Shown piece after piece: positions 14,666 through 26,062 of a stretch of 64,000 nucleotides of DNA (the stretch's first letter is position 1; each line of letters begins with the position of its first letter). A model generated the notes under the pieces. That model did not search any database. It was not told the origin of the DNA and saw nothing but the letters and a program-made list of their open reading frames with translations. The DNA comes from an uncultured candidate division Zixibacteria bacterium. GTDB taxonomy: Bacteria; Zixibacteria; MSB-5A5; GN15; FEB-12. The translations under genes and the position numbers were made by a program. Where the stretch lies: positions 1,376,001 to 1,440,000 of the forward strand of contig CAVTJJ010000004.1 of assembly GCA_963735035.1 (NCBI GenBank). The letters run 5' to 3'.

Positions 14666-15496
14666 ATGGCTATCAAGAGATTTCGCCCCCTGACCCCGTC
14701 GCAGCGGTTCCGCACCGTCCCGGATTTCGCCGAGATTACCTCGACCGTTCCGGAGAAGTCGCTGTTGGAGCCGATGAGCAAATCGGGCGGCCGTAACAAC
14801 AAGGGTCGCATCACCGCTTATCATCGCGGTGGCGGACATCGCCGGCATTATCGCCTGATCGATTTCCGTCGCGAAAAGCACGGCATCCCGGCCCGCGTGG
14901 CGTCGATCGAATACGATCCCAATCGCTCGGCCCGTATTGCTCTGCTTCATTATGCCGACGGTGAGAAACGCTACATCGTCGCCGCCGAGGGTATCGGTGT
15001 CAACGAAGTGCTGCATTCGGGCGGCCAGGCTGAAATCAAGACAGGGAATTCCATGCCGCTTGAGCGCATGCCGCTCGGCACCATGATCCATAATATTGAA
15101 ATGCGTCCCGGCAAAGGCGCCCAGATGGTACGCTCGGCCGGCGCAATGGCGCAGTTGGTCGCGAAGGAAGGTAACAAAGCCACCCTTCGCATGCCGTCGA
15201 CTGAGGTCCGCACCGTACCGATTACGTGCTATGCGACCATCGGACAGGTCGGCAATCTAGCTCACAAGAATGTCGTTTGGGGCAAAGCCGGTGCATCTCG
15301 TTGGCGCGGCTGGAAGCCGATCACCCGTGGCGTCGCCATGAACCCGGTTGATCACCCGATGGGCGGCGGCGAAGGCCGATCGTCCGGCGGTCGTCACCCT
15401 TGCAGCCCCTGGGGTCTGCCGACTAAGGGCTACAAGACCAGGAGCAAGCGCAAGACGCGTGCACATCTGGTGGAACCGCGCAGAAAAGGTAAGTAA
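14666..15496 (+). CDS. rplB: 50S ribosomal protein L2
   Basis: [30 protein letters not shown]. Confidence 0.99.
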
Positions 15497-15511
15497 TCAG
15501 GAGTTTTTTCT

Positions 15512-15802
15512 ATGCCGAGATCGCTGAAGAAGGGCCCGTACGTTGAGGCCTCGTTACAGAAGAGAATCGACAAGCTGCTGCAGTCCGACGACAAGAAAGT
15601 CGTCAAGACCTGGTCGCGGCGCTCCACGATTACGCCCGATTTCATCGGCCGGACTTTCGCGGTGCACAACGGTAACAAGTTCATCCCGATTTATGTCACT
15701 GAAAACATGGTCGGCCACAAGTTGGGTGAGTTCGCTCCGACCCGCACCTTCCGTGGACACAGCGGCAAACTGGTTGAGCGGACCACGCAGTTGAAAGGTT
15801 AA
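15512..15802 (+). CDS. rpsS: 30S ribosomal protein S19 (canonical)
   Basis: [27 protein letters not shown]. Confidence 0.99.
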
Positions 15803-15808
15803 GAAGTA

Positions 15809-16615
15809 ATGGCGCAGAAAACCGAACAGCAGCGTATGCCCAAAGATCCTATCCTGGTCAAGATTCAGGAACAGGACAAGGCCGAACGTCGGAAAGTCAT
15901 CAGGACCAGGGCTCGGCATTCCCGTATTCGCAAGGAATTCGTCGGCCGCACTCTGGGCGTGTTCGACGGTCAGGGATACACCAGCGTGCATATCACGGAC
16001 GACATGGTCGGCCGTCGTATCGGCAAGGTAGCTCCGAAGCATATGCCCACCGCCCAGTCGCGATACCTGAGCATTCCCGCCCGTAAGATGCGGCGCGTGG
16101 CCGCTCTGGTGAAGGGGCTGCCGGTCGAAAAGGCTCTGAATATATTGAAATTCACGCCCAAAATTGCGGCTCATGAGATGGCCAAGACGCTATCCTCGGC
16201 GGTGTTCAACAAGCTGTCAATCGAGGGCACGGCGCATCTTGATGCGGAACATCTGATCCTGAGTAACATCGTGGTCAACGAAGCTCCGACCGCGAAGCGG
16301 ATTCGGAATCGCTCGATGGGTCGGGTCTATCGCATCCGCAAGCGGTATTGCCATCTCGCCATCTACCTGGATGTTGATGAGCGCAAAGAGGCGGCCACGG
16401 TTGCCGCGGCTGAAGTTAAGGGTGACAAGACCAAGACTCCGGCCAAGAAGACCGCAGGCAAGACCACGGTAAGAAGACCGGCTAAGAAGAAGACTACTAA
16501 GAAGACCGCTGCCAAGAAGAAGACGACCAAGAAAGTCGTCGCGAAGAAGACGGCGGCCAAAAAGTCTGGATCGGCCTCGACCGGTAAGGCCGCCAAGACT
16601 GAGAAGAAGAAATAG
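15809..16615 (+). CDS. rplV: 50S ribosomal protein L22 with an N-terminal S19-like domain and a C-terminal Lys/Ala-rich tail
   Basis: aa 79-190 are L22 (RKMRRVAALVKG, RSMGRVYRIRKR..HL); aa 29-76 align without gaps to S19; aa 191-268 are AKK/TKK repeats; sits between rpsS and rpsC. Confidence 0.93.
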   Translation: MAQKTEQQRMPKDPILVKIQEQDKAERRKVIRTRARHSRIRKEFVGRTLGVFDGQGYTSVHITDDMVGRRIGKVAPKHMPTAQSRYLSIPARKMRRVAALVKGLPVEKALNILKFTPKIAAHEMAKTLSSAVFNKLSIEGTAHLDAEHLILSNIVVNEAPTAKRIRNRSMGRVYRIRKRYCHLAIYLDVDERKEAATVAAAEVKGDKTKTPAKKTAGKTTVRRPAKKKTTKKTAAKKKTTKKVVAKKTAAKKSGSASTGKAAKTEKKK

Positions 16616-16637
16616 CTAAGCGCTGTAGGAGTGAGCA

Positions 16638-17576
16638 TTGGGACATAAGACACACCCAATAGGTTTCCGCGTCGGGATTAACAGGCCCTGGAACAGTCGC
16701 TGGTTCGCTTCCGATCGCAATTTTGCGGACCTCGTCCATGAAGATATCATGGTCAAGCGTTATATCGCCAAGCGGTTGGACAACGCCGGTATTTCCAAGG
16801 TCGTGATTTCTCGGGCACCCAAGAGAGTTACCGTCGATATTCACACCGCTCGTCCGGGTATCGTTATCGGTCGGCGGGGCGCCGAGGTGGACAAGCTGCG
16901 CGAAGAGCTGCAGATGTTGACCAAGAAGGCGATCCTCCTGAATATCGTCGAGGTGCGCAAACCGGAACTGAGCTCTCAATTGGTGGCCGATTCGATCGCC
17001 CGTCAGCTTGAAGGTCGTATGTCGTTCCGTCGCGCCATGAAGAAGGCGCTGGCGGCCACGATGAAGATGGGTGCGCAGGGCATTAAGATTCAGTGTGGTG
17101 GACGTCTGGGCGGCGCCGAAATAGCGCGCACCGAAAAGTATATGGATGGACGCGTACCGCTTCACACTCTGCGGGCCGATATCGACTACGCCACGTCGAC
17201 CGGTCACACCACTTATGGAACGATCGGCGTGAAAGTCTGGATCTGCCTGGGTGACATCATGGGCAAGGGCTTGTACCAGCGCGAAGAAGATGAAAAGAAG
17301 AAGGCTGAAGAACCGGAAACCTCGGCCGCTCAGGCCGCTCGGTCACGTCGGGATCGTCCCGGTGGACCGTCGCGGGGTGACAAGGGTGGACCGCCGCGTG
17401 GGCGGGTGAGACGTCCGGGTGCCGGGCCGAGAGGCGCCGCGCCTCGGGGCCGTCGCCCTGAAGATGAAGCGTCAGGTGGACGGCGTCCGGCTTCGCACGA
17501 GAGAACCCCTGAAGCGGCTGGTGGTCAAACCCAGTCAAAACCGGGCGAAGGCTCGGGCGGTGAATCGAAGGCGTAA
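16638..17576 (+). CDS. rpsC: 30S ribosomal protein S3 with a long disordered C-terminal tail
   Basis: GHKTHPIGFR, RPGIVIG, GRVPLHTLRADIDY. Confidence 0.98.
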   Translation: MGHKTHPIGFRVGINRPWNSRWFASDRNFADLVHEDIMVKRYIAKRLDNAGISKVVISRAPKRVTVDIHTARPGIVIGRRGAEVDKLREELQMLTKKAILLNIVEVRKPELSSQLVADSIARQLEGRMSFRRAMKKALAATMKMGAQGIKIQCGGRLGGAEIARTEKYMDGRVPLHTLRADIDYATSTGHTTYGTIGVKVWICLGDIMGKGLYQREEDEKKKAEEPETSAAQAARSRRDRPGGPSRGDKGGPPRGRVRRPGAGPRGAAPRGRRPEDEASGGRRPASHERTPEAAGGQTQSKPGEGSGGESKA

Positions 17577-18033: not shown

Positions 18034-18294
18034 ATGAGAATCGACGAAATGCGGATCTTGACCCGCGAAGAGCTGGAGCAGAAACGGCGCGACCTGGCCG
18101 AAGAGCGCTTCAATCTGAGAATGCGCAAGTCGTTCAAGCAGCTCGATAACCCGCTCCGTCTGCGTGTGCTGCGGCGCGAGATAGCCCGAATCAATACCGT
18201 GATTCGCGAAGATGAAAAAGGCGTGCGCGCTTTGGCCACTGCCAAGAAATCGCTGTTGGAAGAGCTCAACACTTCCGGCAAAGAGAAGAAGTGA
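18034..18294 (+). CDS. rpmC: 50S ribosomal protein L29
   Basis: FNLRM..LDNP..RREIARINT; operon order. Confidence 0.95.
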   Translation: MRIDEMRILTREELEQKRRDLAEERFNLRMRKSFKQLDNPLRLRVLRREIARINTVIREDEKGVRALATAKKSLLEELNTSGKEKK

Positions 18295-18310
18295 GTTCGG
18301 AGAGTCATAA

Positions 18311-18577
18311 ATGACACAGGCAATTGAGAGAAGTAGCCGCAAGGTTAGAACCGGTATCGTCACCTCCAGCGCCATGAACAAGAGTATCGTGGTCCGAATC
18401 GATCGCAAGATCAAGCACCCGCTGTATAGTCGGCCGGTGATGCGTTCGGCCAAGCTCTACGCTCATGACGAAAAGAACGAGGCCAACATCGGCGACACCG
18501 TTCGTATTATGGAAACCCGACCGCTGTCCAAGCTCAAACGCTGGCGTCTGTTGGAAATTGTGGAGCGGGCCAAGTAG
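18311..18577 (+). CDS. rpsQ: 30S ribosomal protein S17
   Basis: [21 protein letters not shown]. Confidence 0.98.
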
Positions 18578-18614
18578 CCCCGGTGTCGGTTGGCATTGGA
18601 AAGGGTGTCTCAAG

Positions 18615-18983
18615 ATGATACAGGAATTTACAGTTCTGTCGGTTGCCGACAACTCCGGCGCTAAACGGGCGATGTGTTTCCGCATTCTCGGCGGAAGCAA
18701 TCGGAAGTCCGCCACGATCGGCGACATCATTGTAGTCGCGGTCAAGGAAGCCATTCCGGGCGGCACGGTTAAGAAATCGGAAGTTTGCAAAGCGGTCGTA
18801 GTCAGAACCAAGTCGCCTGTCAAACGCAAGGACGGGTCAGTGATTCGATTCAGCGACAACGCCGCTGTTATTATAAATGAACAACTGGAGCCGCGCGGCA
18901 CCCGTATTTTTGGCCCGGTGGCGCGCGAACTCCGCGATAAGAAATTCATGAAGATTATCTCCCTGGCACCTGAGGTTCTTTAG
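18615..18983 (+). CDS. rplN: 50S ribosomal protein L14
   Basis: [23 protein letters not shown]; start moved to ATG 18615. Confidence 0.98.
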
Positions 18984-25675: not shown

Positions 25676-26062
25676 TTGGCTCGTATCGCCGGAGTTGATC
25701 TCCCCAAAGACAAGCGGATTGAGGTCGGTCTGCAGTACATTTACGGCGTCGGCCCGTTCATAGCGCGCCGGATTCTATCCAAGACCGGTGTAAGTCCCGA
25801 TCTTCGGGTGAACCAGTTGTCGGATGCGGACGTCGCCAAACTGCGCGCCGCGATTGAAACCGACTTCACGGTCGAAGGCGCCCTGCGGTCGGAAATCTCG
25901 ATGAATATCAAGCGCCTGATCGATATCGGCTCGTATCGCGGCCTGCGTCATCGTCGCGGCCTGCCCGTTCGCGGACAGCGCACCAAGACCAATGCCCGCA
26001 CGCGTAAAGGTCCGAGACGCTCGGTAGGCGGCCTGAAGAAGAAGGCGCCGGCGGCCAAGTAA
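25676..26062 (+). CDS. rpsM: 30S ribosomal protein S13
   Basis: [23 protein letters not shown]. Confidence 0.99.

Follow-up and report, generated by a model that had tools for sequence, protein, structure and literature searches.

A diverged copy of ribosomal protein S19 on the only L22 of some Zixibacteria, a likely accessory module of the large ribosomal subunit

Few proteins are as conserved as those of the ribosome, each of which, to our knowledge, belongs strictly to one subunit. S19 is located in the head of the 30S subunit, next to S13, and L22 is an essential protein of the 50S subunit. The locus described here raises the question of how these two proteins could have come to share a polypeptide chain, and of what a small-subunit fold could be doing on a large-subunit protein. 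In an uncultured Zixibacteria bacterium (assembly GCA_963735035.1, contig CAVTJJ010000004.1, positions 1,376,001-1,440,000 of the forward strand; this whole stretch of 64,000 nucleotides is called the window, and positions are counted from its first letter), the gene that directly follows an intact rpsS encodes an L22 preceded by 78 additional N-terminal residues, in an open reading frame that starts at the ATG at 15809. A sequence-only reading of the window had already pointed out these residues and had taken them for a duplicated, diverged S19 domain. We are highly confident that the extra segment is a real, translated and selected domain, paralogous to S19 and carried by the sole L22 of these organisms; the explanation as a whole, according to which this duplicated copy likely serves as an accessory module of the 50S subunit, is proposed with more reserve, as the one we favor on balance.

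The window harbors, in this order, fusA, tuf, S10, L3, L4, L23, L2, S19, L22, S3, L16, L29, L14, L24, L5, S14, S8, L6, L18, S5, L30, L15, SecY, Adk, Map, IF1, S13, S11 and S4, that is, the canonical str/S10/spc/alpha ribosomal gene cluster. Within this block, the L14 frame at 18294-18615 was given a 50-residue upstream extension by ORF picking, which skipped S17, presumably encoded in another frame at about 18291-18560. The fused gene occupies the slot of uL22, between rpsS and rpsC (L23-L2-S19-fusion-S3-L16-L29), and the features from rpsS to rpsC described below lie on the plus strand. The true rpsS (15512..15802) encodes an intact uS19 of 96 residues that matches the Pfam Ribosomal_S19 profile over positions 1-81 with 123.6 bits, and which represents the parent type of the duplicated domain. 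A Shine-Dalgarno-like GAAAGG within its last codons (15793..15798) is a putative ribosome-binding site for the fused gene, whose ATG follows the rpsS stop after 6 nt. The fused gene itself spans 15809..16615 (268 residues and a stop) and holds both Pfam domains in one frame; the sequence-only reading had placed its end at 16378, and thereby missed a C-terminal tail of 78 residues.

The encoded protein is organized in five parts. An N-terminal leader (residues 1-11; 15809..15841) is poorly conserved and predicted to be disordered, with pLDDT values of 45-53 for residues 1-10 and, for residues 2-11, a median pN/pS of 0.97 over all pairs, at saturated pS. It is followed by the S19-like domain (residues 12-77; 15842..16039), modelled as a helix, three strands and a short helix, and by a junction of four residues (H-M-P-T, residues 78-81; 16040..16051), where the S19 part breaks off behind its ..AP motif and passes into the first strand of L22. 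The junction includes Met79, whose ATG lies at 16043, as had been noted from the letters. The uL22 core (residues 82-187; 16052..16369) precedes a tail rich in Lys, Ala and Thr (residues 188-268; 16370..16612), which is predicted to be disordered (pLDDT below 50 for residues 208-268), carries a net charge of +24 over residues 191-268, and displays a weak match, below the cut-off, to the histone-H1-like HC2 profile (20.1 bits). Comparable tails are present on non-fused Zixibacteria L22 proteins of 180-220 residues, so that the tail is not specific to the fused forms and represents a feature in its own right, of wider occurrence in the phylum. The operon continues with rpsC (16638..17576), which encodes a uS3 of 312 residues with the Pfam domains KH_2 and Ribosomal_S3_C; these stop near residue 203 and are followed by approximately 100 residues rich in Arg, Gly, Pro and Glu, which represent another long, low-complexity extension in the same operon.

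The identity of the two domains is supported by profile, alignment and structural comparisons. Ribosomal_S19 (PF00203) matches residues 12-77 with 51.4 bits in the full protein, and with 55.2 bits when residues 1-78 are scanned alone, over profile positions 10-75 of 81 only; Ribosomal_L22 (PF00237) matches residues 82-187 with 96.2 bits over positions 1-103 of 104 (the Pfam gathering cut-offs being 27 and 28, respectively). The HMM scan that had been proposed as a check thus finds both domains where they were expected. A BLASTP comparison of residues 1-78 with the S19 of the same genome yields an ungapped alignment with 20 identities in 59 positions (34%, E 1e-15), and the 19 identities in 48 counted by hand over residues 29-76 in the sequence-only reading agree with our recount. 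None of 2000 composition-preserving shuffles reached the 21 gapless identities observed, the maximum being 16, and a profile built from 18 of the N-terminal domains recognizes, among solved structures, Thermus thermophilus S19 with E 9e-24 over S19 residues ~8-76. Structure prediction, which had also been called for, points in the same direction. The full-length AlphaFold model is confident for residues 11-200 (pLDDT 85-95), with a disordered tail, and its 50 best Foldseek matches are L22 chains only, led by bacterial L22 with TM scores (target) of 0.8-0.9; a model of the domain alone was therefore required. This second model, of moderate confidence (mean pLDDT 75), depicts a helix packed on a three-stranded sheet (helices 14-25 and 71-74; strands 31-33, 48-52 and 57-61), and all 50 of its best matches in the PDB are uS19 chains, with a TM score of ~0.72 and, for most, an rmsd of 1.5-2.2 A.

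Is the domain, then, a second S19? A comparison by position, between 64 fused proteins and 88 sequences of true S19, speaks against it. Eleven positions carry the same residue in both families (V30, K32, T33, R36, G46, T48, G54, T63, M66, G68 and P76), and these look like positions of the fold core. Elsewhere the signature of S19 has been rewritten: His52, present in 100% of true S19 sequences, is Phe in 95% of the N-terminal domains, W34 is Arg in 73% of them, E73 and F74 are replaced by Lys and Val, H69 and T77 are also replaced, mostly, like the others, by Arg, Lys or Val, and K56, K70 and R78 are variable. In this numbering, the S19-invariant set that was tested (W34, H52, K56, P59, H69, K70, E73, F74, T77 and R78) is not retained by the N-terminal domains, and 12 sites that are invariant in S19 vary freely in them. 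The motif changes listed for the window in the sequence-only reading (TWSR to TRAR, HNG to FDG and GHKLGEF to GRRIGKV) are real, and its view that the core was kept while signature residues changed is borne out by these positions and by the fold. The domain lacks both the N-terminal PRSLKKGP motif of S19 and the C-terminal tail that follows ..APTR; it does not stand alone, being joined to L22 four residues past the ..AP motif; and it displays a distinct, conserved surface signature of its own, formed by F52, R34, R69, K73 and V74. The gain of basic charge that had been noticed as additional Arg amounts, for residues 12-77 of the window, to a net +9 as compared to +4 in the S19 of the same genome, and across the 19 distinct fused loci the domain exceeds the corresponding stretch of the S19 of the same genome in basic charge in 16 and equals it in three. 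In addition, the domain evolves at several times the rate of the true S19 in the same genomes. Judged from these residues, the domain is a paralogue of S19 and not a second S19, and would no longer perform the task of the latter, since 12 invariant sites have been freed and His52 has become Phe, even though the fold core is kept. A sub-group of fused proteins (L018, L021 and L024, from genus g23, and P0068, P0069 and P0072) carries a domain nearer to true S19, which keeps RTWDR or RTHDR and GDFAP and branches nearest to the true S19 sequences; lineages must hence have diverged at strongly different rates once the duplication had occurred.

A diverged copy directly beside its parent could also have arisen during assembly or gene calling, as an assembly echo of rpsS or by read-through, and the many singleton proteins of other lineages in the databases that read through from S19 into L22 lend this idea some initial appeal. 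Those singletons, however, are single sequences with a full canonical S19, whereas the copy in the window lies beside an intact S19 to which it is only 34% identical. The two window copies share 104 of 177 nucleotides (59%), and 54% at third codon positions; such low sharing indicates an old duplication and no assembly echo, as the sequence-only reading had maintained. The fusion also recurs. Both Pfam domains are found in at least 69 protein clusters (69 of the 120 listed), called L22 of Zixibacteria where the source names them, and 32 of 113 fetched loci are fused, 19 of which are distinct and stem from independent assemblies, single-contig genomes among them. (A search of genome contigs with an alignment as query returned 80 loci, mostly non-fused, and a metagenome search three; the genome-contig search with a single protein as query returned no loci.) The artefact explanation is refuted by this divergence and recurrence, and its probability is next to nil. 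Two cluster representatives, P0262 (217 residues), in which the diverged S19-like domain is followed by a PhdYeFM antitoxin domain, and P0241 (254 residues), in which it is followed by a partial L22 and Usp, are probably chimeric contigs or gene calls.

The 19 distinct loci also permit an assessment of whether the S19-like stretch belongs to the mature protein. It could be a decaying remnant outside of it, either because translation starts at Met79 (16043) or because the domain is cleaved off; the window does have an ATG at that residue, with AAGG ~13 nt upstream, and close relatives manage without the domain. An ATG at aligned residue 79 is nevertheless found in one of the 19 loci, namely the window itself, and five of the 19 have no ATG, GTG or TTG whatsoever in residues 70-90, including a relative that is 91% identical (L039). 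An ATG is present at the aligned start of the fusion in all 19, preceded shortly by GAAAGG or AAAGG in 18 of them, as read by eye, and by GGAAAG in the remaining one (L089); the frame is open and the junction lies at the same place in 19 of 19, and a true S19 is found directly upstream in every case, that of L011 being cut by the contig end. The near absence of a start codon at residue 79 thus indicates that the gene is translated as a fusion. Contigs of relatives in other public runs bridge 16043 without a gap, much of 15840-16000 being uncovered in three of the four runs. A search of public runs for 15400-16700 gave no RNA run, and the DNA run that matched best contained 0.13 of the sampled words.

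Selection leads to the same conclusion. For six close pairs with unsaturated dS, the Nei-Gojobori dN/dS of the S19-like domain is 0.10, 0.15, 0.054, 0, 0.10 and 0.11, while in the same pairs the L22 core ranges from 0.012 to 0.21 and true S19 from 0 to 0.07. Values of 0-0.15, similar to those of the L22 core, suggest that the domain is translated and constrained about as strongly as that core, which upholds the earlier opinion that the duplication was a selected one; they are incompatible with a pseudogene and, together with the open frames and a fold predicted confidently in the full model, make a decaying remnant very unlikely. A lineage-specific ribosomal-protein extension is a segment added to a universal ribosomal protein that purifying selection conserves in a clade, and the S19-like domain answers to this description.

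How widespread is this extension, and how did it arise? A scan of 285 Zixibacteria genomes yielded a match in 262, and among the matches listed a single open frame covers both domains in 17 of the 285. All 17 belong to one family (95 matched genomes, that of the window included) and are distributed over nine genera, and among the listed matches from the other 19 families, none extends over both domains. In each fused genome, that of the window likewise, only the true S19 and the fusion match the fusion query, which implies that the fusion is the sole L22. The survey of relatives that had been suggested therefore confirmed the architecture and at the same time revealed something that the sequence-only reading had missed: close relatives, including members of the same GTDB genus, lack the domain (g44, for instance, includes the fused G095, G100 and G101 and the non-fused G094, G098 and G099), and in the non-fused relatives L22 begins with a short, clean N-terminus that retains no trace of it. 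The domain must accordingly be dispensable, and not essential.

In a tree of four genes (L2, S19, the L22 core and S3) for 88 distinct loci, of which 19 are fused and 69 are not, the distribution of the fused state needs five changes, four of which are forced by well-supported branches, and the count is the same without the L22 columns. With these columns removed, an AU test of the fused genomes as a single clade gives p 0.046, a borderline rejection, so that the number of losses is not firm. The 19 N-terminal domains, on the other hand, separate from the 88 true S19 sequences with support of 99/97 and in 99% of bootstrap trees, with a long-branch warning, and their grouping as a single clade could be helped by long-branch attraction. 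All share one junction position and the His52-to-Phe change, and the single clade and common junction point to a single origin. The simplest history compatible with these sequences would be that the copy was made and fused once and was then lost cleanly several times, the patchy spread implying that the losses came later; some of these losses may instead have been lateral replacements of rplV. No stand-alone protein consisting of the diverged domain was found among the best 150 of 3527 matches (E up to 0.001) in a profile search of 1.84 billion representatives; eight of these 150 match from profile position 1, all of 217-276 residues and two of them being the probable chimeras P0262 and P0241, and the rest look like ordinary S19. 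Several loci in the four-gene tree (L050, L062, L064-L068 and others) are titled 'uncultured Ignavibacteriales/Ignavibacteriaceae bacterium', yet group with Zixibacteria, which suggests loose taxonomic labels on the MAG submissions.

The sequences show that a tandem copy of the neighboring rpsS lost the C-terminal tail of S19 and became fused, in frame, to the front of rplV, most simply in a single event in an ancestor belonging to one Zixibacteria family. The product is a single polypeptide comprising the S19-like domain, the uL22 core and the basic tail, and is the sole L22 encoded in these genomes, and the separate canonical S19 remains available for the 30S subunit. Given that L22 is an essential 50S protein, the S19-like domain would be carried along into the large subunit. 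The globular domain of uL22 is exposed on the solvent side and flanks the tunnel exit (PMC5071890); placed on the basis of what is known of uL22, the S19-like domain would sit next to this globular domain, at the solvent surface and beside the tunnel-exit region, and the tether of ~4 residues to the first strand of uL22 means that it would have to lie on that surface. In the vicinity of the tunnel exit, ribosomes of the fused genomes are thus likely to display a fold of the small subunit. There, the domain would most likely act as an accessory, basic module of the solvent face of the 50S subunit that binds rRNA or stabilizes the surface, and that would be kept by purifying selection and yet be dispensable, several sister lineages having lost it cleanly. 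We put the chances that it works as a module binding rRNA or the ribosomal surface on the 50S subunit at about even.

If the domain binds rRNA, its target could have changed together with the fusion, and the sequence-only reading had listed a lineage-specific rRNA element among the potential partners. A search for 23S rRNA in 15 genomes, which gave none from G106, G104, G102 and G100 and fragments, left out, from G018, allowed 10 genomes to be compared, and no 23S indel tracks the fusion among these six fused and four non-fused genomes. Two columns that split five fused from four non-fused genomes are attributable to chance: this partition ranks 75th of 126, and the sixth fused genome, G024, breaks both. 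The proposal of a lineage-specific element finds no support in this 23S comparison; should the domain bind rRNA, the target would already be common to all of these relatives.

The same result fits the idea that the domain, located on the 50S subunit, binds proteins rather than rRNA, and remodels the docking platform of the tunnel exit for nascent-chain factors (deformylase, methionine aminopeptidase, trigger factor, SRP or SecYEG), or recruits a lineage-specific factor. Peptide deformylase docks next to uL22 and bL32. The domain displays a distinct conserved surface signature, as described above. In addition, uL22 is one of four proteins around the tunnel exit (PMC5071890). The gain in positive charge, however, points to nucleic acid and not to protein, and the genes for uL23, uL24 and uL29 are all present in the operon and are ordinary, which leads us to consider protein docking unlikely. 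Less likely still is an extra-ribosomal or assembly role, in which the domain would regulate the mRNA of its own operon, titrate partners of S19 such as RimM (the decoy suggested in the sequence-only reading) or S13, or act as a chaperone for L22 in 50S assembly. In its favor, the S19 fold is retained, a RimM-S19 complex (3a1p_B, TM 0.73) is among the structural matches of the domain model, and S13 is encoded in the same window (25676..26059). The loss or replacement of most S19-invariant surface residues nonetheless argues against S19's partners having been kept, and a tether of ~4 residues to an essential 50S protein would drag such partners onto the large subunit. Both alternatives are hence ranked below the reading of the domain as an rRNA- or surface-binding module.

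This module could be thought of in more ambitious terms, as a new site at the 50S tunnel exit whose basic, selected surface recruits a specific RNA or a nascent-chain factor, or contacts a neighboring ribosome. We regard this as a speculative and rather improbable extension of the model; if it were true, the Zixibacteria that carry the fusion would run a specialized ribosome, and it would be the first case in bacteria of a small-subunit protein fold re-deployed on the large subunit. The sequences themselves already reveal that a free-living bacterial lineage has duplicated a small-subunit fold, altered it and attached it to a core protein of the large subunit, and that selection maintains it in at least nine GTDB genera. 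A demonstration that the domain resides on the 50S subunit would document how ribosomal surface modules arise from a neighboring gene, and would provide a natural variant of the tunnel-exit region. The repeated clean losses in sister lineages offer natural pairs for comparison with and without the domain. On the practical side, marker-gene pipelines in which S19 and L22 are counted as single-copy genes can be misled by the second S19 match within rplV.

In a full-text literature search, no report of L22 with an S19-like domain came to light, and PMC13338714 concerns other extensions. The belief expressed in the sequence-only reading that no S19-L22 fusion had been described hence holds for this literature; it does not extend to the databases, with their many canonical S19-L22 read-through singletons. 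The latter combine the same pair, PF00203 and PF00237, in the same order as the Zixibacteria fusion, and can mimic it in searches by domain architecture. The clusters listed with this pair as P0121-P0240 have mostly one member, and the seven that were read (P0126, P0137, P0145, P0172, P0213, P0226 and P0231) carry, unlike the Zixibacteria proteins, a complete canonical S19 with its tail, followed by a linker and L22, with no extra diverged copy. In these, the sole S19 probably runs on into L22 through a lost stop, a frameshift or a read-through in gene calling; database proteins in which L2 continues into S19 are also present.

With uS19 itself (PF00203), the domain has in common a profile match above the cut-off, the alpha/beta fold and the 11 core positions, and it differs in being fused, in its missing N-terminal motif and C-terminal tail, in its altered invariant sites, in its faster evolution and in having a canonical S19 beside it. 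As for uL22, the chloroplast protein uL22c has been nearly doubled in size by extensions on the solvent side (PMC5071890, PMC5694952), which touch neighboring proteins and rRNA ends (PMC5694952). On the basis of such descriptions of uL22c, the resemblance lies in a universal uL22 core enlarged by N- and C-terminal additions; the N-terminal addition of the Zixibacteria is instead a recognizable folded domain, copied from a protein of the other subunit, in a free-living bacterium. The closest confirmed analogue in kind is mL66 (MRPS18A), a bS18 paralogue that sits in the large subunit of the mitoribosome (PMC11791143); there, too, the large subunit has taken over a paralogue of a small-subunit protein, and the original has stayed in the small one. 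mL66 is, however, a separate protein of an organelle ribosome, whereas the Zixibacteria copy is covalently fused to a core large-subunit protein and would reach the 50S subunit by virtue of that fusion. Compared with these systems, the fusion may best be described, as far as its sequences indicate, as a lineage-specific ribosomal-protein extension that arose by co-option of a paralogue from the other subunit, and that has so far been seen in one family of Zixibacteria.
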